Source: Escherichia phage vB_EcoP-101120B1-2. From it: 39,845 nucleotides of DNA. The notes under the pieces are model-generated. The model was not told the origin of the DNA. It made no database searches and saw nothing but the letters and a program-made list of their open reading frames with translations. Shown piece by piece: positions 3,368 through 39,256 of this stretch (its first letter is position 1; the number at the start of each line of letters is the position of its first letter). A program made the translations under genes and the position numbers. The stretch is taken from the sequence record MZ234022.1; one strand, written 5' to 3'.

Positions 3368-5899
3368 ATGTCCACGATTACACAATTCCCTTCAGGAAAC
3401 ACTCAGTACAGGATTGAGTTCGACTACCTAGCCAGAACGTTTGTTGTTGTTACGCTGGTGAATAGCTCTAACCCTACCCTGAACCGTGTACTGGAAGTTG
3501 GTCGAGATTACCGATTCCTTAATCCAACGATGATTGAGATGTTGGTTGACCAATCAGGTTTCGACATAGTTCGTATTCACCGTCAGACTGGAACTGACTT
3601 AGTGGTAGATTTCAGGAATGGCTCAGTGTTGACAGCTAGTGACCTGACCAATTCAGAGCTTCAGGCTATCCATATTGCAGAAGAAGGTCGAGACCAAACG
3701 GTTGACTTAGCGAAGGAATATGCCGATGCTGCTGGTAGCTCTGCTGGCAACGCTAAGGATAGCGAGGACGAAGCACGCCGAATCGCTGCGAGTATCAGGG
3801 AAGCTGGTCTAATTGGCTATATTACCCGTCGCTCCTTCGAGAAAGGCTACAACGTTACAACATGGAGCGAGGTCCTGCTATGGGAAGAGGATGGTGATTA
3901 TTACCGCTGGGATGGTACGCTTCCAAAGAACGTTCCTGCTGGTTCAACTCCTGAAACTTCCGGTGGGATTGGATTAGGTGCGTGGGTTAGTGTTGGTGAT
4001 GCTGCTTTAAGAAGTCAGATTTCAAACCCGGAAGGGGCAATACTCTACCCGGAATTGCAGATGGCAAGATGGCGTGATGAGGGTGATGTTCGAGGCTGGG
4101 GTGCTAAAGGGGATGGTGTAACAGATAGTACGGAGAATATAGCTGCTTCACTAAGTTCTCAAAAAGCTGTCGTAGCATCAGAAGGTGTATTCTCTAGTTC
4201 TGGTATTAATAGTAATTACTGTAACTTAGACGGTAGGGGTAGTGGCGTGCTAAGTCACCGTTCCAGTACAGGTAACTACTTAGTATTTAACAATCCACGT
4301 ACAGGTCGCTTAAGTAATATTACGGTAGAAAGTAATAAGGCGACTGATACAACTCAGGGACAGCAGGTATCTCTTGCGGGTGGAAGCGATGTTACTGTAA
4401 GTGACGTTAACTTCTCAAACGTTAAAGGTACTGGTTTCAGTTTAATCGCATACCCTAATGATGCGCCACCTGATGGACTTATGATTAAAGGCATTCGAGG
4501 TAGCTATTCCGGCTATGCTACTAATAAGGCAGCCGGATGCGTACTTGCTGACTCCTCAGTTAACTCCCTCATAGATAACGTTATTGCTAAGAACTACCCT
4601 CAGTTCGGAGCAGTAGAGTTGAAAGGTACAGCCAGTTACAACATAGTCAGTAATGTTATAGGGGCAGATTGCCAGCATGTAACTTACAACGGCACTGAAG
4701 GGTCAATAGCTCCTTCTAATAACATTATAAAGGGGGTGATGGCTAATAACCCTAAGTATGCAGCGGTTGTTGCAGGCAAAGGAAATACTAACTTAATCTC
4801 AGACGTGCTCGTAGATTACTCAACTTCTGATGCTAGCCAGGCTCATGGCGTTACCGTAGAAGGGTCTGATAACGTCATAAATAATGTGCTTATGTCAGGA
4901 TGTGATGGTACTAACTCTTTAGGACAAAGGCAGACTGCTACAATTGCACGCTTTATAGGTACAGCTAATAACAACTATGCGTCTGTATTTCCTAGCTACA
5001 GTGCTACAGGTGTTATTACTTTCGAATCCGGCTCTACCCGTAACTTCGTAGAGGTAAAACACCCTGGCAGGAGAAACGACCTTCTCAGTTCTGCTAGTAC
5101 TATTGACGGTGCAGCTACTATTGACGGCACTAGTAATAGTAACGTAGTGCACGCACCTGCCTTAGGGCAGTACATAGGTAGTATGTCAGGTAGGTTCGAA
5201 TGGTGGATTAAGTCCATGTCACTCCCTTCAGGCGTTCTTACTTCTGCTGATAAGTACAGAATGCTTGGGGATGGTGCTGTGTCATTAGCTGTAGGTGGTG
5301 GTGCATCTTCTCAAGTTCGACTATTTACTTCTGATGGTATTTATCGGACAGTGTCCCTCACCAACGGCAACGTGCGTCTTCCTACCAGTAGCACAGGTTA
5401 TTTGCAGTTAGGTTCTAATGCAATGACCCCAGATAGTACTAATACATACGCATTAGGTTCCGCAAGTCGAGCATGGTCTGGCGGTTTTACTCAATCAGCA
5501 TTCACTGTTGTCTCAGATGCTAGGGATAAAACAGAGCCTCTTAATATCTCAGATGCTTTACTGGATGCTTGGTCTGAAGTTGACTTTGTGCAGTTTCAGT
5601 ACTTGGACCGAATTGAGGAGAAGGGTGCAGACTCAGCTAGATGGCACTTCGGCATCATCGCTCAGCGAGCTAAGGAGGCCTTCGAACGTCACGGTATAGA
5701 TGCACATCGCTATGGCTTCCTGTGCTTCGACAGTTGGGATGATGTATACGAGGAAGATGCCAATGGCTATCGTAAACTGATTACACCAGCAGGTTCCCGC
5801 TACGGTATTCGTTACGAGGAAGTACTGATATTAGAGGCTGCGTTGATGCGGCGTACTATTAAGCGTATGCAGGAAGCATTAGCTGTTATGTCTAAGTGA
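3368..5899 (+). CDS. Tailspike protein (gp17 homolog): T7-like N-terminal adaptor domain, pectate-lyase-like beta-helix depolymerase body, C-terminal intramolecular chaperone domain
   Basis: SD CAAAGGAGG upstream of ATG. N-terminus EFDYLARTFVVVTLV resembles T7 gp17 FEYLARKFVVVTLI. Central motif WGAKGDGVTDSTENIAAS is typical of pectate-lyase-3 beta-helix tailspikes. C-terminus carries SDARDK (Ser716, Lys721) in the spacing of the peptidase S74 Ser-Lys dyad. Confidence 0.85.
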   Translation: MSTITQFPSGNTQYRIEFDYLARTFVVVTLVNSSNPTLNRVLEVGRDYRFLNPTMIEMLVDQSGFDIVRIHRQTGTDLVVDFRNGSVLTASDLTNSELQAIHIAEEGRDQTVDLAKEYADAAGSSAGNAKDSEDEARRIAASIREAGLIGYITRRSFEKGYNVTTWSEVLLWEEDGDYYRWDGTLPKNVPAGSTPETSGGIGLGAWVSVGDAALRSQISNPEGAILYPELQMARWRDEGDVRGWGAKGDGVTDSTENIAASLSSQKAVVASEGVFSSSGINSNYCNLDGRGSGVLSHRSSTGNYLVFNNPRTGRLSNITVESNKATDTTQGQQVSLAGGSDVTVSDVNFSNVKGTGFSLIAYPNDAPPDGLMIKGIRGSYSGYATNKAAGCVLADSSVNSLIDNVIAKNYPQFGAVELKGTASYNIVSNVIGADCQHVTYNGTEGSIAPSNNIIKGVMANNPKYAAVVAGKGNTNLISDVLVDYSTSDASQAHGVTVEGSDNVINNVLMSGCDGTNSLGQRQTATIARFIGTANNNYASVFPSYSATGVITFESGSTRNFVEVKHPGRRNDLLSSASTIDGAATIDGTSNSNVVHAPALGQYIGSMSGRFEWWIKSMSLPSGVLTSADKYRMLGDGAVSLAVGGGASSQVRLFTSDGIYRTVSLTNGNVRLPTSSTGYLQLGSNAMTPDSTNTYALGSASRAWSGGFTQSAFTVVSDARDKTEPLNISDALLDAWSEVDFVQFQYLDRIEEKGADSARWHFGIIAQRAKEAFERHGIDAHRYGFLCFDSWDDVYEEDANGYRKLITPAGSRYGIRYEEVLILEAALMRRTIKRMQEALAVMSK
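5516..5896 (+). other. Predicted auto-cleaved C-terminal intramolecular chaperone domain of the tailspike (residues 717-843); cleavage predicted after Ser716
   Basis: SDARDK motif with Ser and Lys five residues apart, followed by a roughly 125-aa domain, as in the endosialidase/T5 L-shaped fibre chaperone domains (recalled from literature). Confidence 0.5.
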
Positions 5900-6123: not shown

Positions 6124-6233
6124 TAAACAAAACCATTTTGCCATTAGGTTGGTGGGGTAGAGACTAACTACACGCTAACCAACGTATGTAACAACTTTGG
6201 GTCACGGACGACCCGCTTTAAACTGGAGGTTTT

Positions 6234-6428
6234 ATGATTGAGTTAGACTTCAAGAATGAGGTCCTTAAAGCCTCTCCTATCGTCGGGACCGCTGCGGCTG
6301 ATGGTGCCAGTCGGTTCTTCTTCGGACTTACACTGAACGAATGGTTCTACGTTGCAGCTATCGCGTACACCGTTGTCCAGATTGGTGTGCTAGTCTACAA
6401 AACGATTAAAGGAGGTGGTAAAACATGA
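6234..6428 (+). CDS. Type II holin (gp17.5 homolog)
   Basis: MIELDFKNEVLKASPIVGTAAADGASRFFFGLTLNEWFYVAAIAYTVVQIG closely matches T7 gp17.5 as recalled; single hydrophobic segment; SD GGAGG. Confidence 0.85.
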   Translation: MIELDFKNEVLKASPIVGTAAADGASRFFFGLTLNEWFYVAAIAYTVVQIGVLVYKTIKGGGKT

Positions 6429-6688
6429 CGCAGATGGACTTAGAGAAGTTCCTCTTGATGCTGGATACTGAACGTGCTAGACTCATGCTGCAAGACCTGC
6501 GGGATGACTCTAAGCGTTCACCTCAGCTTTACAACGCCATTGAGAAGCTACTGGCTCGTCACAACTTCGTGCTAAGTAAGGTGTCTGTGGACGAGAAGAC
6601 GCTGGCTGATATGGAGGCCCTGAACGCAGAGTACGATAAGGTGCTTTCAGCGACTGAGGATAATGACACCGGGTATGGCGTTCAATAA
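6425..6688 (+). CDS. Terminase small subunit / DNA maturation protein A (gp18 homolog)
   Basis: 87 aa at the T7 gene 18 position; FLLMLDTERARLMLQDL...SPQLYNAIEKLLARH resembles T7 gp18 ITFLEMLDTAMAQRMLADL...SPQLYNAINKLLDRH. Confidence 0.85.
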   Translation: MTQMDLEKFLLMLDTERARLMLQDLRDDSKRSPQLYNAIEKLLARHNFVLSKVSVDEKTLADMEALNAEYDKVLSATEDNDTGYGVQ

Positions 6689-6692
6689 GTGT

Positions 6693-6736
6693 TAGACTCA
6701 AGGTCATTACTATATGTAGTGGCCTTTATGGTTAAC
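6693..6736 (+). promoter_or_regulatory. Conserved RNA hairpin, late family copy 1 (candidate RNase III processing site, T7 R18.5 position)
   Basis: TAGACTCAAGGTCAT...GTGGCCTTTATG shared with 16336..16379 and 23562..23602. Stem AAGGUCA/UGGCCUU (one G-U) is conserved while the loops differ. Confidence 0.45.
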
Positions 6737-6789
6737 ACTAACTAGTGGAGGAGACTCTACGTGAAATCTGATAAACCGGGAGGGCAACT

Positions 6790-7233
6790 ATGCTCGAATT
6801 TTTAAAGAGAGCGGCTCCGTGGTTACTTGCAGCAGTGATGTTTGCTGGTGGCTACCACACCGCTAACAATAAGTGGGAGGCTAAGGTAAATGCAGAATAC
6901 ACCTCGAATCTTAAGGCATCGGAGGATACAAGGCTTGCTGTCCAAGCTGAAGTCAACAAAGTGTCCAAACGGTTTCAGGACGAAATGTCCTCGCTGGAAG
7001 GCAGCACTGACAGGATTATTGCTGACCTTCAGTCTGACAATAAGCGGCTGCGCATCCGAGTCAAACCTACGAGTGGAACCACGCAAAGTGACGGTCGATG
7101 CGTCATTGATGGTTACGCCGAACTTGACGAACGAGATGCTAAACGTCTTATCTCCATCGGACTGAAAGGGGACGCTTGGATTAAAGCACTACAGGATACT
7201 ATCCGCAAACTTCAACAAGACAAGGAGAAATGA
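6790..7233 (+). CDS. Rz-like i-spanin (gp18.5 homolog)
   Basis: MLEFLKRAAPWLLAAVMFAGG N-terminal TM segment; ...STDRIIADLQSDNKRLRIRVK...DERDAKRLI...GDAWIKALQDTIRKLQ matches T7 gp18.5 as recalled. Confidence 0.85.
   Translation: MLEFLKRAAPWLLAAVMFAGGYHTANNKWEAKVNAEYTSNLKASEDTRLAVQAEVNKVSKRFQDEMSSLEGSTDRIIADLQSDNKRLRIRVKPTSGTTQSDGRCVIDGYAELDERDAKRLISIGLKGDAWIKALQDTIRKLQQDKEK
6890..7165 (+). CDS. Rz1-like o-spanin lipoprotein (gp18.7 homolog), embedded in the +1 frame of the Rz gene
   Basis: Contains lipobox-like LTISGC followed by ASES...VDASLMVTPNLTNEMLNV, matching T7 gp18.7. Embedded Rz/Rz1 architecture. Exact start uncertain. Confidence 0.65.
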   Translation: MQNTPRILRHRRIQGLLSKLKSTKCPNGFRTKCPRWKAALTGLLLTFSLTISGCASESNLRVEPRKVTVDASLMVTPNLTNEMLNVLSPSD

Positions 7234-7670
7234 TGCTCAGTGATTCGTATTTCTATGATGAGTCCAGTAAGTCTGGCCTGAAGTCCCTGCGTTCTGGTAA
7301 GGATGTGGGGTGTGTGGGAAACCACGGGTATTATCAGGTAGGAACTCGACGTCATGGACTCCTGCTGGCCCATAGAGTCGTCTGGGAGCTAACCAACGGT
7401 CCTATACCAGAAGGGATGGAGATTGACCATATCGACCGCTGCCGGACTAACAACAGGCTGGACAACCTCCGGCTAGTTACTTCAAGCGAGAACTCCTGCA
7501 ACACCTCAGGACATTCCGACTCAAAGACTGGAGTTAAGAACATATCGTTCCATCAGAATGGCTACGCTATCGAGGTCATGCGTAAGGGGGTCCGTATGCG
7601 AACAACACGTCCTACTTTAGAGGAGGCTATCTCTGTCCGGGACCTAATGCTGGAGGGACTCTATGTCTAA
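7230..7670 (+). CDS. HNH homing-endonuclease-like protein inserted between the spanin and large-terminase genes
   Basis: Motif [30 protein letters not shown] (His-Asn-Asn HNH core with Cys ligands); ATGATG start after SD AAGGAGA; overlaps the gp19 start by 8 nt. Absent at this position in T7. Confidence 0.75.
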
Positions 7671-9429
7671 GAAAACACCTGCTGAAAGACAGGCTGAAAT
7701 GACCCAAAGGATGAGGGACGACTTCGTGTTCTTCATCTTCGTTCTCTGGAAAGCGCTGAGCCTTCCGGTTCCAACCAGATGTCAGATAGATATGTGTAAG
7801 AAGCTGGCTGCTGGCGATAACCGACGCTTCATCCTTCAGGCGTTCCGAGGTATTGGCAAATCGTTTCTGACCTGTGGTTTCGTGGTCTGGAAGCTATGGA
7901 ATAACCCAGACTTGAAGTTCATGATTGTGTCGGCCTCAAAGGAGCGAGCCGATGCTAACTCCATCTTCATCAAGCGAATCATCGACCTCATGCCTCAGCT
8001 TCAGGAACTCAAACCTAAGCAGGGACAGCGAGATGCGGTTATTAGCTTCGACGTGGGACCTGCCAAGCCAGACCACTCACCTTCGGTTAAGTCCGTTGGT
8101 ATCACTGGTCAGTTGACTGGTAGTCGTGCTGACATCCTGATTGCCGATGACGTGGAGGTTCCGAACAACTCAGCGACTCAGGCTGCACGAGACCGTCTAT
8201 CAGAGCTTGTGAAAGAGTTCGACGCTATCCTGAAGCCGGGAGGTACGATCATCTATCTGGGTACTCCTCAGAACGAGATGACCCTGTACCGTGAGCTGGA
8301 AGGTCGTGGGTACACCACTACTATCTGGCCCGCTCGTTATCCACGCGACAGGAAGGACTGGCAGTCTTACGGCGACCGTCTGGCTCCTATGCTTCAGGCA
8401 GAGCTGGAAGAGGACCCTGAGTCCTTCTACTGGCGTCCGACTGATGAAGTACGCTTCGATGATACGGACCTGAAGGAACGTGAGCTGTCCTACGGTAAAG
8501 CTGGCTTCGCTCTACAGTTCATGCTTAACCCGAACCTGAGTGATGCCGAGAAGTACCCTCTTAAGCTCCGTGACCTTATCGTAGCCGACTTGGACCCAGC
8601 GTCCAGCCCAATGGCCTACCAATGGTTGCCGAACCCTCAGAACAAGCGTGAGGACGTTCCTAACGTTGGACTCATGGGTGACTCGTACCACACGTATCAG
8701 ACTGTAGGTTCTGCCTTCAGCTCATACACCCAGAAGATTCTGGTCATTGACCCTAGTGGTCGTGGTAAGGATGAAACTGGATATGCGGTACTGTACCAGC
8801 TCAACGGCTACATCTTCGCTATGGAAGTTGGTGGCATGCGTGGTGGTTATGAATACTCTACGCTGGAAGCCTTGGCTAAGATTGGTCGTAAGTGGAGGGT
8901 AAACGAATACGTCATTGAGGGTAACTTCGGTGATGGTATGTACCTTGAGCTATTCAAGCCTGCATCGGCCCGTATCCATCCTGCGGCTGTAACTGAAGTG
9001 AAGAGTAAGGGTCAGAAAGAACTACGCATCTGTGACGTTCTGGAGCCTATCATGGGGTCTCACAGACTTATCGTTAACGCTGCTGCTATCGTCCAAGACT
9101 ACCAGACAGCCTCTGACAAGGATGGTGTTCGTAACCCTATCTACTCTCTATTCTATCAGATGACACGTATCTCTCGTGAGCGTGGAGCCTTGGCACACGA
9201 TGACCGACTTGATGCGCTGGCTATCGGTGTACAGTTCTTCGTTGAGTCGATGGCTAAGGATGCCAACAAAGGCGAACGTGAAGTCACTGAGGAATGGCTG
9301 GAGGAACAGATGGAGAACCCACGGAAAGGCTTCGAGTCCATCCACACTGAGTTCTGGGACAATGGGGTCCGGGTAACTCACGATACGGACGACGAGCTTG
9401 GACTAGGGTCATACGTTACGTTCCACTAG
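7663..9429 (+). CDS. Terminase large subunit / DNA maturation protein B (gp19 homolog)
   Basis: 588 aa; long stretches match T7 gp19 ([91 protein letters not shown]). Confidence 0.95.
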
Positions 9430-10790: not shown

Positions 10791-10854
10791 CGACAGTGAT
10801 TAACTACAGGGTCTTTGAGTCTACATCTGAAGGCCCTGACTGATAGTCACTAAC
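10791..10854 (+). promoter_or_regulatory. Conserved 64-nt hairpin, early family copy 1 (candidate RNase III site, T7 R0.3 position)
   Basis: Near-identical to 11939..12002 (one mismatch); shorter variant at 11119..11171. Upper stem CAGGGTCTT/AAGGCCCTG, lower stem AGTGA/TCACT, separated by an internal loop, as in T7 RNase III sites. Confidence 0.55.
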
Positions 10855-11116: not shown

Positions 11117-11118
11117 GA

Positions 11119-11171
11119 GTGATTAACTACAGGTCGTTAGACTGATAGCGGCCTGACTGATAGTCACTAAC
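11119..11171 (+). promoter_or_regulatory. Conserved hairpin, early family copy 2 (shorter variant) immediately upstream of the Ocr homolog
   Basis: GAGTGATTAACTACAGG...GGCCTGACTGATAGTCACTAAC shares both flanking arms with copies 1 and 3. Confidence 0.45.
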
Positions 11172-11199
11172 ACATAATTAACTTTGAGAGGATATAACT

Positions 11200-11938: not shown

Positions 11939-12002
11939 CGACAGTGATTAACTACAGGGTCTTTGAGTCTACATCTGAAGGCCCTGACTGATAGCCACTA
12001 AC
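11939..12002 (+). promoter_or_regulatory. Conserved 64-nt hairpin, early family copy 3 (candidate RNase III site)
   Basis: 63 of 64 nt identical to 10791..10854; immediately upstream of ORF 12019. Confidence 0.55.
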
Positions 12003-19907: not shown

Positions 19908-20362
19908 TGGCCCAATGGTCTGCAAAACGGGGGCACTCTGTGGGTGCCTACCGCTCTGGACTTGAAGCCAAGAACCAGCAGTGGCTGGAACAGAACGGCG
20001 TCAAAGCGGAGTACGAAAGCCATTATATCAACTATGTGATTCCGGCTTCCGACCACAAGTACACACCAGATTTTATCCTTCCCAACGGTATCATCGTGGA
20101 GACCAAAGGTATCTTCGATAGTGATGACCGTAAGAAGCACCTTCTGGTACGAGAACAGCACCCAGAGTTAGACATCCGGTTCGTGTTCTCAAGTTCACGC
20201 TCCAAGCTATACAAAGGGTCCCCGACCACGTATGGCGCATGGTGCGAAAAGAACGGCTTTAAGTTTGCCGACAAGTTTATCCCTGTTGAGTGGCTGCGAG
20301 AGGCGACTGTACGTCTGCCTTCAGGTATACTCATTCCCAAGAAGAAAGGAGTTAAGAAATGA
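19907..20362 (+). CDS. Endonuclease I (gp3 homolog, Holliday-junction resolvase)
   Basis: VIPASDHKYTPDFILPNGIIVETKG...DDRKKHLLVREQHPELDIRFVFSSSRSKLYKGSPTTYG matches T7 endonuclease I. Confidence 0.95.
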   Translation: MAQWSAKRGHSVGAYRSGLEAKNQQWLEQNGVKAEYESHYINYVIPASDHKYTPDFILPNGIIVETKGIFDSDDRKKHLLVREQHPELDIRFVFSSSRSKLYKGSPTTYGAWCEKNGFKFADKFIPVEWLREATVRLPSGILIPKKKGVKK

Positions 20363-20850
20363 GCCAGAAGTTTAAACTGTTAGTAGATATATATGGTTGG
20401 CCTCGTGGGACTATCGTTACCAAGTGTAAGAAGGACCCAGCTCCGTTGCCTACCCTTACCCTAGTTGAGTGCCAGACTCCAGGCAAATACAAACATGGGC
20501 CTAACGGCTTCAATACTCAGCCTAAGGGCATGTGGGGAGCATGGATTGCTGACAGATATCTTGAGGAAATCAAACCAGAAGAGGAACTCACTGGTGTACA
20601 GACCACTCAAGTCCTTCCAGCTTCGAGCGTACCTCCTGTGACAGTGAAACGCGAAGTCCTGACCATCGACAAGATTGGTGTAGGCCAGACGTTCATCGTC
20701 CATGGAAAGCCTGAAGAAGTTTACGTGAAGATTAGCAACTCACACGTCTTCAACCATAAGCATCTCCAGATGCACACCACGGACGCACAACGCTTCACCC
20801 AGCACCTGAATCTGGTTGTCGTAGAATTGGTGGTGTACAATGGTAAGTAA
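20359..20850 (+). CDS. Hypothetical protein (163 aa) inserted between the endonuclease I and amidase genes
   Basis: SD AAAGGAG upstream of ATG, translationally coupled on both sides; no T7 gene at this position; no motif recognised. Confidence 0.6.
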   Translation: MSQKFKLLVDIYGWPRGTIVTKCKKDPAPLPTLTLVECQTPGKYKHGPNGFNTQPKGMWGAWIADRYLEEIKPEEELTGVQTTQVLPASSVPPVTVKREVLTIDKIGVGQTFIVHGKPEEVYVKISNSHVFNHKHLQMHTTDAQRFTQHLNLVVVELVVYNGK

Positions 20851-36973: not shown

Positions 36974-39256
36974 ATGGCTAGTAATATTGAATCAGCTCTG
37001 GCTAATCGGACTATGGGTCGCGGCAGAGCGCCGGGTAAAACTATCGCCGTAAACTATCAAGCAGCCAACGTTCAGGCTCCGACTGGGGACTCCGGGCTGG
37101 CTCGTGCATTGACTAACTTCGTTGAGTCTGGGACAGGATTGTACAAGCAGTTCAAGGACGATGAGAAGACCAGAGCTGACGAGCGGTCTAACGAGATTAT
37201 CCGTAAGTTGACACCTCAGCAGAGACGTGAGGCTATCCAGAACGGCACATTGCTGTATCAGGATGACCCTTACGCTATGGAAGCACTTCGAGTCAAGACT
37301 GGTCGTAATGCTGCCTTTGCCGTAGACGACGAGATTAACGTTAAGATTCAGAATGGTGAGTTCCGCACACGTCAGGAAATGGAAGAATATCGACACCAGC
37401 GACTTCAGGATGCCGCTAAGTCATATGCCGAAGAGGCGGGTATTAACCCTACCGACGAGTTCTTCCAGCGTGGATTCAACGATAACATCACGGACCGAAA
37501 CATCGCTATCTATGGGTCTTTCAATAAGTATTTCAGCAAGCAGTCTGAAGAGACAGCAATGTTGAACACTCGTATTGAGATGAACTCATTCCTGAACGAT
37601 GGGGACCTGATGCGTTCGCCTGAGTCTGGAAAGACCTTCATGGCCTACCTTCGGGATGGACTAACGACTGCAGCTATCCCTTCGGACCAGCGAGCACGAG
37701 AGGTCATTACCCAGACGGTACGTGACGCAATCCAGAAGTCTGGAGGCTCAAACTTCCTACAGCAAGTTCGAGGCGAGCGAATCACCCTTAACGGTGTGGA
37801 TGCTACAGTCGAAGAGATTGTAGGACCTGATGTCTTCAACGCTGCTATTGTTGAGGCACAGGGCACTGAGTACAAGCTGGTGGCTAAGTATCAGGAAGAC
37901 TTGGCTTTAGGCGTTCAGTCTGCGATTCTTCAGGATGACCCGACCATCGGTCTGGCCCAGATTCAGAAACTCAAGGAGCAGAACAACCTGCTTCAACCGG
38001 GTGAAGAACTCACGCCTCAGCGTCAGATGCTTATTAATGCCGAAGCCAGCTTGCTTGAAGCGGTCAAGCGTAAGTCTGCTGAACAGGCGAAGGAGAACAC
38101 TAAGTTAATCCAGACCCAGAACAAGCAACTGGTCATTGACCAAGTGTATCAGCGACGTCTGGCTGGGGACAACGTGTCCACCAACTATGAGGACCTTCCT
38201 GTCTCTGACGCTACAGGTGAGTTCAAGCGTTCAGATATGAACAACTACGCGTCTGCCAAGCTACAGCAGATTGACCAGATGGACATCCCTGAGGCTGCTA
38301 AGGACGCTCAGAAGGTGGCATTGTTAAGAGCTGACACTAACAACGGTCCATTCCGTAATGCCTTCCAGACGCTGACTCAGGACGCTGCTGGTGAGTGGCA
38401 AGCTGCGGTCATCCGTGGACAGTACGACCCAGACAAGATGAAACGCTTCGAGTCTCTTCGTCGTGCCTACACTCAGGACCCTTCAAGTTTCGCTGCTCTG
38501 TATCCTGACCAAGCTCAGTTGTTCTCTACGTTCGACCAGATGGACAAGATGGGTCTGGACCCTCAGACGATGATTGAAGCCGATAAGCAAGCTGCAAGTC
38601 AAAGCCGTGAGATGCGCATGGAGTCAGACAAGGCGTGGCAGGAGTTGAAGAACGACTCTCGGAATAAGGACCTTTCGCGTCTTCCTACGTCTCTGGACGC
38701 AAGTGCTCGTAAGGTCTGGGACTCATGGTACTACCGTACAGGTAACGCTGATGCTGCAACTCAGCAGACTCAACGATGGCTGAATGAAAATACCGTAACG
38801 TTCCAGTCTGAAGGTTCTGACGGTAAGTCCATCGGCATGGTGTCAAAGCACCAGCTTATGGTCGGGGATAACCCAGAGTCGTGGCAGGTTGGTCGAGACA
38901 TTATCGACACCGCTCGTAAGCAGCTCATTAAGGCCAACCCTTGGGTAGTGAACTCTCAGTTGTCCGTTGTTGAACAGAACGGCTCTATCTTCCTCCAAGA
39001 CGCTACAGGGACTATTCGTATTCGCTACGATAAAGAACTTGTAGGTAAACTCTACCGCGAACAACAGCAGAAGGCACAAGATGCCGCATACGCTCAGGCA
39101 GAACGTGACGCTAACAAGCGCGCGCGTATCGTCGGGACTAAAGCTGCTGGTGACAAACGTCGAGCTGACCGAGAGGCCAACATCGAGAAGCGCGGAGGGA
39201 TGTACAATGACGTCTCATTGGAGGGTATCGCAAACGTACTAATCGGTAAGGAGTAA
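36974..39256 (+). CDS. Internal virion protein C (gp15 homolog)
   Basis: 760 aa, SD GAGGAGG, at the T7 gene 15 position (T7 gp15 747 aa). Confidence 0.85.
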   Translation: MASNIESALANRTMGRGRAPGKTIAVNYQAANVQAPTGDSGLARALTNFVESGTGLYKQFKDDEKTRADERSNEIIRKLTPQQRREAIQNGTLLYQDDPYAMEALRVKTGRNAAFAVDDEINVKIQNGEFRTRQEMEEYRHQRLQDAAKSYAEEAGINPTDEFFQRGFNDNITDRNIAIYGSFNKYFSKQSEETAMLNTRIEMNSFLNDGDLMRSPESGKTFMAYLRDGLTTAAIPSDQRAREVITQTVRDAIQKSGGSNFLQQVRGERITLNGVDATVEEIVGPDVFNAAIVEAQGTEYKLVAKYQEDLALGVQSAILQDDPTIGLAQIQKLKEQNNLLQPGEELTPQRQMLINAEASLLEAVKRKSAEQAKENTKLIQTQNKQLVIDQVYQRRLAGDNVSTNYEDLPVSDATGEFKRSDMNNYASAKLQQIDQMDIPEAAKDAQKVALLRADTNNGPFRNAFQTLTQDAAGEWQAAVIRGQYDPDKMKRFESLRRAYTQDPSSFAALYPDQAQLFSTFDQMDKMGLDPQTMIEADKQAASQSREMRMESDKAWQELKNDSRNKDLSRLPTSLDASARKVWDSWYYRTGNADAATQQTQRWLNENTVTFQSEGSDGKSIGMVSKHQLMVGDNPESWQVGRDIIDTARKQLIKANPWVVNSQLSVVEQNGSIFLQDATGTIRIRYDKELVGKLYREQQQKAQDAAYAQAERDANKRARIVGTKAAGDKRRADREANIEKRGGMYNDVSLEGIANVLIGKE

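Follow-up and report, generated by a model that had tools for sequence, protein, structure and literature searches.

I-HmuI of Bacillus phage SPO1 is an endonuclease encoded within a group I intron that nicks one DNA strand, and its C-terminal DNA-binding region is helical with a helix-turn-helix. The gene considered here comes from Escherichia phage vB_EcoP-101120B1-2 (MZ234022.1; "the window" denotes the whole stretch of 39,845 nucleotides that was analysed). It differs from I-HmuI in being free-standing and in the C-terminal domain of its product, which is predicted to be AP2-like. Closer to home, other T7-like phages have HNH genes, T7 genes 3.8 and 5.3 among them, that are likewise small, dispensable and free-standing. 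Their products belong to the same protein family as the window protein, that of T7 gene 3.8 being 47% identical over residues 48-109. However, these genes reside in the early/middle DNA-metabolism region, whereas the window HNH gene lies at the terminase gene.

Free-standing HNN-AP2 endonucleases are known to occur in phages (PMC2248197). Those of the Xanthomonas phages Xp10, OP1 and Xop411 have an HNN core followed by AP2, as proposed here for the window protein, with which they have the boxes AHR..W, DH, NN, NLR and EN in common; like the window gene, their genes are free-standing and variably present. In the window protein, by contrast, the AP2 domain is beyond detection by Pfam.

Nuclease genes have been found at the boundaries of genetic exchange between phages (PMC10448857). 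In the "intronless homing" of T4 SegF, SegG and MobE (cited in PMC10448857), a free-standing gene likewise sits between conserved genes, flanking markers are co-converted, and the target is presumed to lie in the neighbouring essential gene, as would be the case for the window gene. The Seg proteins are GIY-YIG enzymes, though, and their activity and marker exclusion were shown experimentally, whereas for the window HNH protein these are inferred.

The same locus, between genes 18.5 and 19, is occupied in CR8 and CR44b (gene 3.8A) and in Hafnia phage Ca (ORF48, MK610268), with the same overlaps with both neighbours as in the window. The CR8 copy is 98.6% identical to the window HNH gene. The proteins of CR44b and of the Hafnia phage, hereafter type B, are ~66% identical, with most of the coding sequence differing, and they start at a GTG located 11 nt inside gp18.5, unlike the ATG of the window gene. 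All of these genes already carry the label of homing endonuclease in annotations or publications, the one of Hafnia phage Ca being described as such at this very locus (PMC8861465).

Genomic context and prior annotation

The window belongs to the genus Kayfunavirus (Studiervirinae). Its 3.5-kb HNH region is 100% identical to that of vB_EcoP-101120B2 (MZ234023.1), and over the whole window the two records differ by ~55 nt absent from the window near 11.1 kb and seven substitutions, and by nothing else. The deletion lies at window ~11118-11183; past ~11.18 kb, positions in the window and in MZ234023.1 are offset by 54-55. The name 'HNH homing endonuclease' is already given to 7233-7670 in MZ234023.1 and to GenBank entry QZI79814.1. 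The paper listing isolate 101120B1-2 does not discuss the gene (PMC8614997).

Elsewhere in the window, a 64-nt direct repeat (10791-10854 and 11939-12002), whose copies are 98% identical and 1148 nt apart, lies on either side of the ocr (gp0.3) region among the early genes and may contain promoter or regulatory elements. An ORF of 163 aa at 20359-20850 (+), between endonuclease I (gp3) and endolysin (gp3.5), has no Pfam match. The tail spike at 3368-5899 (+), 'hypothetical' in GenBank, has a T7 tail-fibre N-terminal adaptor and a TSP1/Gp66 N-domain, together with a Peptidase_S74 intramolecular chaperone at its C-terminus. The source paper calls CDS 002 a K5 lyase (PMC8614997).

The HNH gene and its neighbours

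The initial annotation, made from the sequence alone, had reported a 146-aa HNH ORF between gp18.5 and gp19, overlapping both of them, at a position where T7 has no gene. This description is accurate. The ORF is intact on the + strand and contains the motif that had been quoted; the gp18.5 stop (TGA, 7231-7233) overlaps the HNH start; and the gp19 ATG at 7663 is 8 nt ahead of the HNH stop (TAA, 7668-7670), giving an 8-nt overlap. In T7, gene 18.5 ends at 37348 and gene 19 starts at 37370, leaving a gap of 21 nt. The coordinates of the features are collected in Table 1.

Two ATG codons may serve as the HNH start. The one at 7233 is the likelier, because the Shine-Dalgarno motif AAGGAG lies 5 nt from it and 2 nt from the ATG at 7230, and the choice made in GenBank agrees. 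Residue numbers below refer to the resulting 145-aa protein.

Among the neighbours, gp18.7 has a lipobox-like LTISGC, is without annotation in MZ234023.1 and lies outside the HNH insert. Gp19 matched the T7 RNaseH-like family PF22530 and, weakly, Terminase_6N in Pfam, while Terminase_1 was not matched. A tblastn search with the HNH protein against the whole window revealed no second copy. CR44b has a second HNH gene, '3.8B' (L006, 5078-5494), whose product is 39% identical over residues 33-137; since it lies directly downstream of gene 19, the terminase gene of CR44b is bracketed by two HNH genes.

Table 1. Features of the HNH locus in the window (positions of the whole stretch)
Feature	Position	Strand	Basis or remark
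gp18.5, Rz-like i-spanin	6790..7233	+	Pfam Phage_lysis E=8e-5; GenBank 'Rz-like lysis protein'
gp18.7, o-spanin (lipoprotein)	6890..7165	+	PF17531 O_Spanin_T7 E=4.2e-26; other frame inside gp18.5
Shine-Dalgarno AAGGAG for HNH	7222..7227	+	Sequence, alignments
HNH ORF	7230-7670 (maximal, 146 aa); 7233-7670 (145 aa)	+	Intact; Pfam, PHROG, GenBank
Mobile/co-converted block (putative)	7231..7883	+	HNH gene and first ~220 nt of gp19; 653 nt
HNH_3 beta-beta-alpha-metal core	7365..7496 (residues 45-88)	+	Profile match; predicted fold
Catalytic codons	D65 7425-7427; H66 7428-7430; N78 7464-7466; N87 7491-7493	+	
AP2-like C-terminal DNA-binding domain, predicted	7542..7655 (residues 104-141)	+	Three strands and a helix
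Shine-Dalgarno GGAGGG for gp19	7652..7657	+	Sequence; inside HNH 3' end
gp19, large terminase, T7 type	7663..9429	+	PF22530 E=1.9e-36

Domain organization and conservation of the HNH protein

The HNH protein matched Pfam HNH_3 (PF13392) over residues 45-88 with 75.9 bits (cut-off 24.8; E=1.8e-21) and PHROG 99 'HNH endonuclease' with E=7.5e-45, so that a chance match can be discarded. HNH_3 alone was detected: the HNH family PF01844 gave no match to the window protein in Pfam even at E<=10. The only solved relative found by sequence was I-HmuI (1U3E; E=0.0026, 22% identity).

Because D65, H66, N78 and N87 line up with D74, H75, N87 and N96 of I-HmuI, the sequence identifies the window protein as an 'HNN' variant of HNH. 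A word-indexed protein search returned 26 homologues, and the four residues are unchanged across 24-25 homologues. The absence of catalytic residues would have counted against homing; the alignment shows that all four are present. Furthermore, dN/dS was 0.19-0.27 between types A and B (type A being the allele of the window) and 0.10-0.16 within type A, values which indicate that the coding sequence is under purifying selection.

An AlphaFold2 model of the protein (mean pLDDT 88) comprises an N-terminal beta region and the beta-beta-alpha core in residues 1-90, followed by a floppy linker of low confidence (residues 91-97) that joins the nuclease to the C-terminal domain. The predicted fold thus shows both the beta-beta-alpha-metal arrangement of HNH_3 and the three-stranded sheet on a helix that characterizes AP2, and the protein is predicted to consist of an I-HmuI-like nuclease domain and an AP2-like domain. 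Pfam gave no match to AP2 (PF00847) at E<=10 for the window protein or its C-terminal fragment, and no match of any kind when the N-terminal residues 1-49 and the C-terminal residues 89-145 were searched on their own. Four homologues (37-39% identity) have weak AP2 matches (E=7e-6 to 5e-3, all under the 33.3-bit cut-off) at the position aligned with the window C-terminal domain. The AP2 assignment is therefore a prediction from the modelled fold and these homologues, the window sequence itself being too diverged for Pfam.

States of the 18.5/19 junction

The type-A HNH allele was found at full length in 39 phage records (90-100% DNA identity), compared with 764 records in which the 5' region of gene 19 is detectable; in all those inspected it lies between genes 18.5 and 19. 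Among its carriers are E. coli Kayfunavirus phages, phages of Enterobacter, the Salmonella phages PRF-SP, STP-SP and CRW-SP, and CR8, a Citrobacter phage of another genus (Caroctavirus). The ORF is intact in every complete carrier examined, and broken copies occur only in assemblies with frameshifts throughout. Since a scan of IMG/VR with TerL gave about seven close relatives, this survey rests mainly on GenBank phage records.

Besides type A, represented by the window, CR8 and PRF-SP2, the junction may hold a type-B gene (66% amino acid identity; CR44b, Hafnia phage Ca/yong1, TH16 and two IMG/VR contigs) or a third HNH allele (63% amino acid identity). The latter was found on a distant, T7-like IMG/VR contig (3300030238_000004, L024; HNH at 1089-1523) whose TerL is 68% identical and overlaps the HNH gene by 8 nt. 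On this contig the upstream neighbour of the HNH gene encodes a 196-aa membrane-like protein instead of a spanin.

The junction is empty in T7, GA2A, 216Ecol046PP, Mt1B1_P3 and CHRF_10037. In Bas105 (L094, 1002-1607) and CLB_P1 (L095, 1446-2237) it holds, at the equivalent of window ~7231, an unrelated cargo gene of phrog_17779, which has no Pfam match. CLB_P1 annotates its copy as 'gp18.8 putative protease'.

According to the initial annotation, universal presence at this locus in the lineage would have told against its reading. With the HNH gene missing from these seven phages, where the junction is empty or carries other cargo, it is far from universal, and the sporadic presence at a single locus is what is seen with homing genes. 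The junction is, moreover, a hot spot for more than one cargo.

Extent of the shared block and mosaicism around it

The HNH gene is 98.4-98.6% identical at the DNA level to those of the Salmonella PRF-SP phages and CR8, while the flanks in these comparisons fall to 64-80%. Against CR8, the window has 7 mismatches in 7220-7883, whereas identity is 63.5% upstream and 75.9% in the rest of gene 19 (7/643 vs 715/2482; Fisher test, p=7e-71); a second Fisher test gave p=2e-18. Against PRF-SP2 there are 10 mismatches in 7231-7907; the upstream flank (6200-7152) is 80% identical, and identity drops to only 60-73% within gp18.5. The stretch of high identity has sharp limits, at about 7220/7231 on the left and 7883 on the right.

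The reverse pattern emerges with the nearest HNH-less relatives, 216Ecol046PP and Mt1B1_P3, which are 95-98% identical to the window on both sides but 69-70% identical in gene 19 from 7671 to 7883. Here the mismatches are dense, and they become sparse again exactly at 7884. We had considered the 7884 boundary as a shared cleavage site and dropped this idea, as it is merely the end of the patch in this genome. In the same segment of gene 19 the window is 99-99.5% identical to CR8 and PRF-SP2 and 93% identical to CR44b; types A and B have in common this 5' allele and the last ~50 nt of the HNH ORF. Relative to the HNH-less relatives, 31 codons differ, 26 of them synonymously, with a saturated pS of 0.78 and a pN of 0.08. 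It follows that the segment represents a deeply diverged allele rather than a mutated copy.

On the left, gp18.5 forms the flank of the HNH insertion up to 7230, and over 7090-7230 it shares 96-98% identity with Bas105, CLB_P1 and P762. Bas105 and CLB_P1 split from the window right after AAGGAGAAA. The stretch 7153-7229, initially taken as part of the mobile patch, was excluded from it: being shared with Bas105 and CLB_P1, which are HNH-less at this junction, it is an ordinary gp18.5 allele. Comparison with HNH-less relatives, which the initial annotation had suggested for defining the insertion point, thus places the HNH gene exactly between the stop of gene 18.5 and the start of gene 19. To judge from these alignments, the window genome looks like a Kayfunavirus whose backbone is of the type seen in 216Ecol046PP, Mt1B1_P3 and Bas105 and which has received a foreign patch of 653 nt, and the block points to horizontal movement with co-conversion of flanks, as in homing genes.

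Bas105 and CLB_P1 keep the ordinary 5' allele of gene 19 (97% identical to 216Ecol046PP), so the diverged allele is paired with the HNH gene rather than with cargo in general. It is also found without the HNH gene in about a dozen phages, namely GA2A and about ten similar ones, and since it occurs in these HNH-less phages, it represents a natural lineage that is not strictly HNH-linked. GA2A (L008, 1486-1720) has the full 'HNH-linked' allele and no HNH gene. Monomax (L009, 1465-1690) and an IMG/VR contig (L013) are recombinants, also without an HNH gene, in which the allele switches ~60 nt into gene 19. The states seen in GA2A, Monomax and L013 may represent an ancestral empty context, products of loss, partial conversion or ordinary mosaics; they suggest that recombination at the 18.5/19 junction is frequent whether a nuclease is present or not.

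Translation signals at the cassette borders

In HNH-less phages, AAGGAGG precedes a TTG start of gene 19 that overlaps the gp18.5 stop (TTGA), and this ancestral start context reads AAGGAGGTGACGCATTG. In the window, gene 19 is preceded by a GGAGGG stretch within the HNH 3' end, which is also kept in the type-B allele of CR44b. The cassette thus appears to take the old ribosome-binding site of gene 19 and to give gene 19 a new one, which would keep the terminase expressed. RNA folding at 7195-7265 and 7625-7695 did not go beyond that of shuffled controls (z=1.19 and 0.10, respectively) and so gave no evidence of translational sequestration at the two ribosome-binding sites.

In Hafnia phage Ca, small plaques are dominated by variants in which 397 bp of the type-B cassette have been lost spontaneously (PMC8861465). 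The translation signals offer a simple explanation, because the cassette carries the ribosome-binding site of gene 19: an imprecise deletion would damage the signals for terminase translation. The small plaques could also mean that the cassette is useful to the phage, but a polar effect on gene 19 translation explains them equally well.

Discussion

Based on the sequence comparisons and the predicted fold, we propose that the window gene is probably a free-standing homing endonuclease of the I-HmuI-like HNH_3 family, an 'HNN' variant with a C-terminal AP2-like domain. The homing reading given in the initial annotation gains support from the bounded block, in that homing with co-conversion is suggested by ~99% identity over 7231-7883 amid flanks of 64-80%, and by HNH-less relatives being ~30% apart there.

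The HNH protein would be made late, along with gp18.5 and gp19. In a cell co-infected by an HNH-less relative, it would nick or cut the DNA of this relative at or close to the boundary between genes 18.5 and 19, or within the 5' part of gene 19. The break would then be repaired by recombination with the HNH-carrying genome as template, and this repair would copy the HNH gene together with adjacent donor sequence into the recipient, while the diverged gene 19 5' allele of the carrier presumably escapes cleavage. We infer in this way the enzymatic activity, the kind of break (a nick or a double-strand break), the resistance of the carrier allele and the position of the target, which in HNH-less alleles would fall within or close to 7153-7884.

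A bolder reading, which we put forward as a tentative possibility and regard as rather doubtful, sees the 18.5/19 junction of T7-like phages as a contested landing site at which at least three diverged HNH alleles and the phrog_17779 cargo replace one another. The HNH cassettes would be entrenched by seizing the ribosome-binding site of gene 19 and supplying their own, imprecise loss crippling terminase expression in an addiction-like manner, and the enzyme would find its target at the terminase gene 5' end in phages of different genera. If this were true, it would account for the small plaques of the Hafnia phage Ca deletion variants.

A pattern similar to the one we attribute to homing could also arise from ordinary mosaic recombination, the junction being known to vary. 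The gene would then be a passive passenger, a former homing endonuclease that no longer spreads by itself, and the block would stem from ordinary homologous recombination at a junction that accepts cargo. The unrelated phrog_17779 cargo in Bas105 and CLB_P1, the HNH-linked gene 19 allele without HNH in GA2A-like phages and the partial recombinants Monomax and L013 all speak for such an origin. We nevertheless consider it unlikely: the catalytic residues are intact and invariant, dN/dS stays at 0.1-0.27, the ORF is unbroken outside the frameshift-ridden assemblies, and the near-identity across genera is tightly bounded and centred on the HNH gene. Homing therefore remains our preferred explanation for the block.

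The initial annotation had also mentioned assistance to terminase-mediated packaging, in which the HNH protein would work with the terminase in genome maturation as does HK97 gp74, which we take to be a member of the PF01844 HNH family. As in phages of the HK97 gp74 type, the window HNH gene is found beside a terminase gene; it adjoins and translationally overlaps the large-terminase gene in three diverged alleles, and small plaques go with the deletion in the type-B cassette of Hafnia phage Ca (PMC8861465). However, both protein families differ, the window combining an HNH_3 (I-HmuI type) protein, in which PF01844 is unmatched, with a T7-type terminase, which already contains an RNaseH-like nuclease domain and falls outside Terminase_1. 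As PMC8861465 summarises it, only phages with a Terminase_1 enzyme need an HNH protein of the HK97 type. Moreover, the gene is required and conserved there and optional in the lineage of the window: T7 and the closest relatives of the window, like most Kayfunavirus relatives, package without it. With the small plaques accounted for by the gene 19 ribosome-binding site in the cassette, a role in packaging finds no support and appears highly improbable to us.

Hardly any weight can be given to a nuclease kept mainly as a weapon that damages the genomes of co-infecting competitors, its own copying being a by-product: the target region would be in an essential gene of these competitors and the pattern fits the marker exclusion of T4 Seg endonucleases (cited in PMC10448857), but the sequences give no sign of a benefit to the carrier phage, and the molecular mechanism is the same as that of homing, so that sequence data cannot separate the two.

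As phage mobile elements go, the HNH gene belongs to a familiar class and is unremarkable within it, and the feature itself is already known from the public record, from gene 3.8A of CR8 and CR44b and from Hafnia phage Ca (PMC8861465). What is added here, the limits set to the co-converted tract and a picture of the junction as a hot spot for several cargos, is detail and not a new kind of system, and its significance goes little beyond correct annotation. In phages bred or engineered for therapy, the cassette can be expected to spread and drag flanking sequence along, and if the cleavage site were mapped, the enzyme would be usable for counter-selection in T7-like phage engineering. For the T7-like phages themselves, the HNH cassette would explain the local mosaicism at the start of the terminase gene, which is relevant for terminase-based phage phylogeny and typing.
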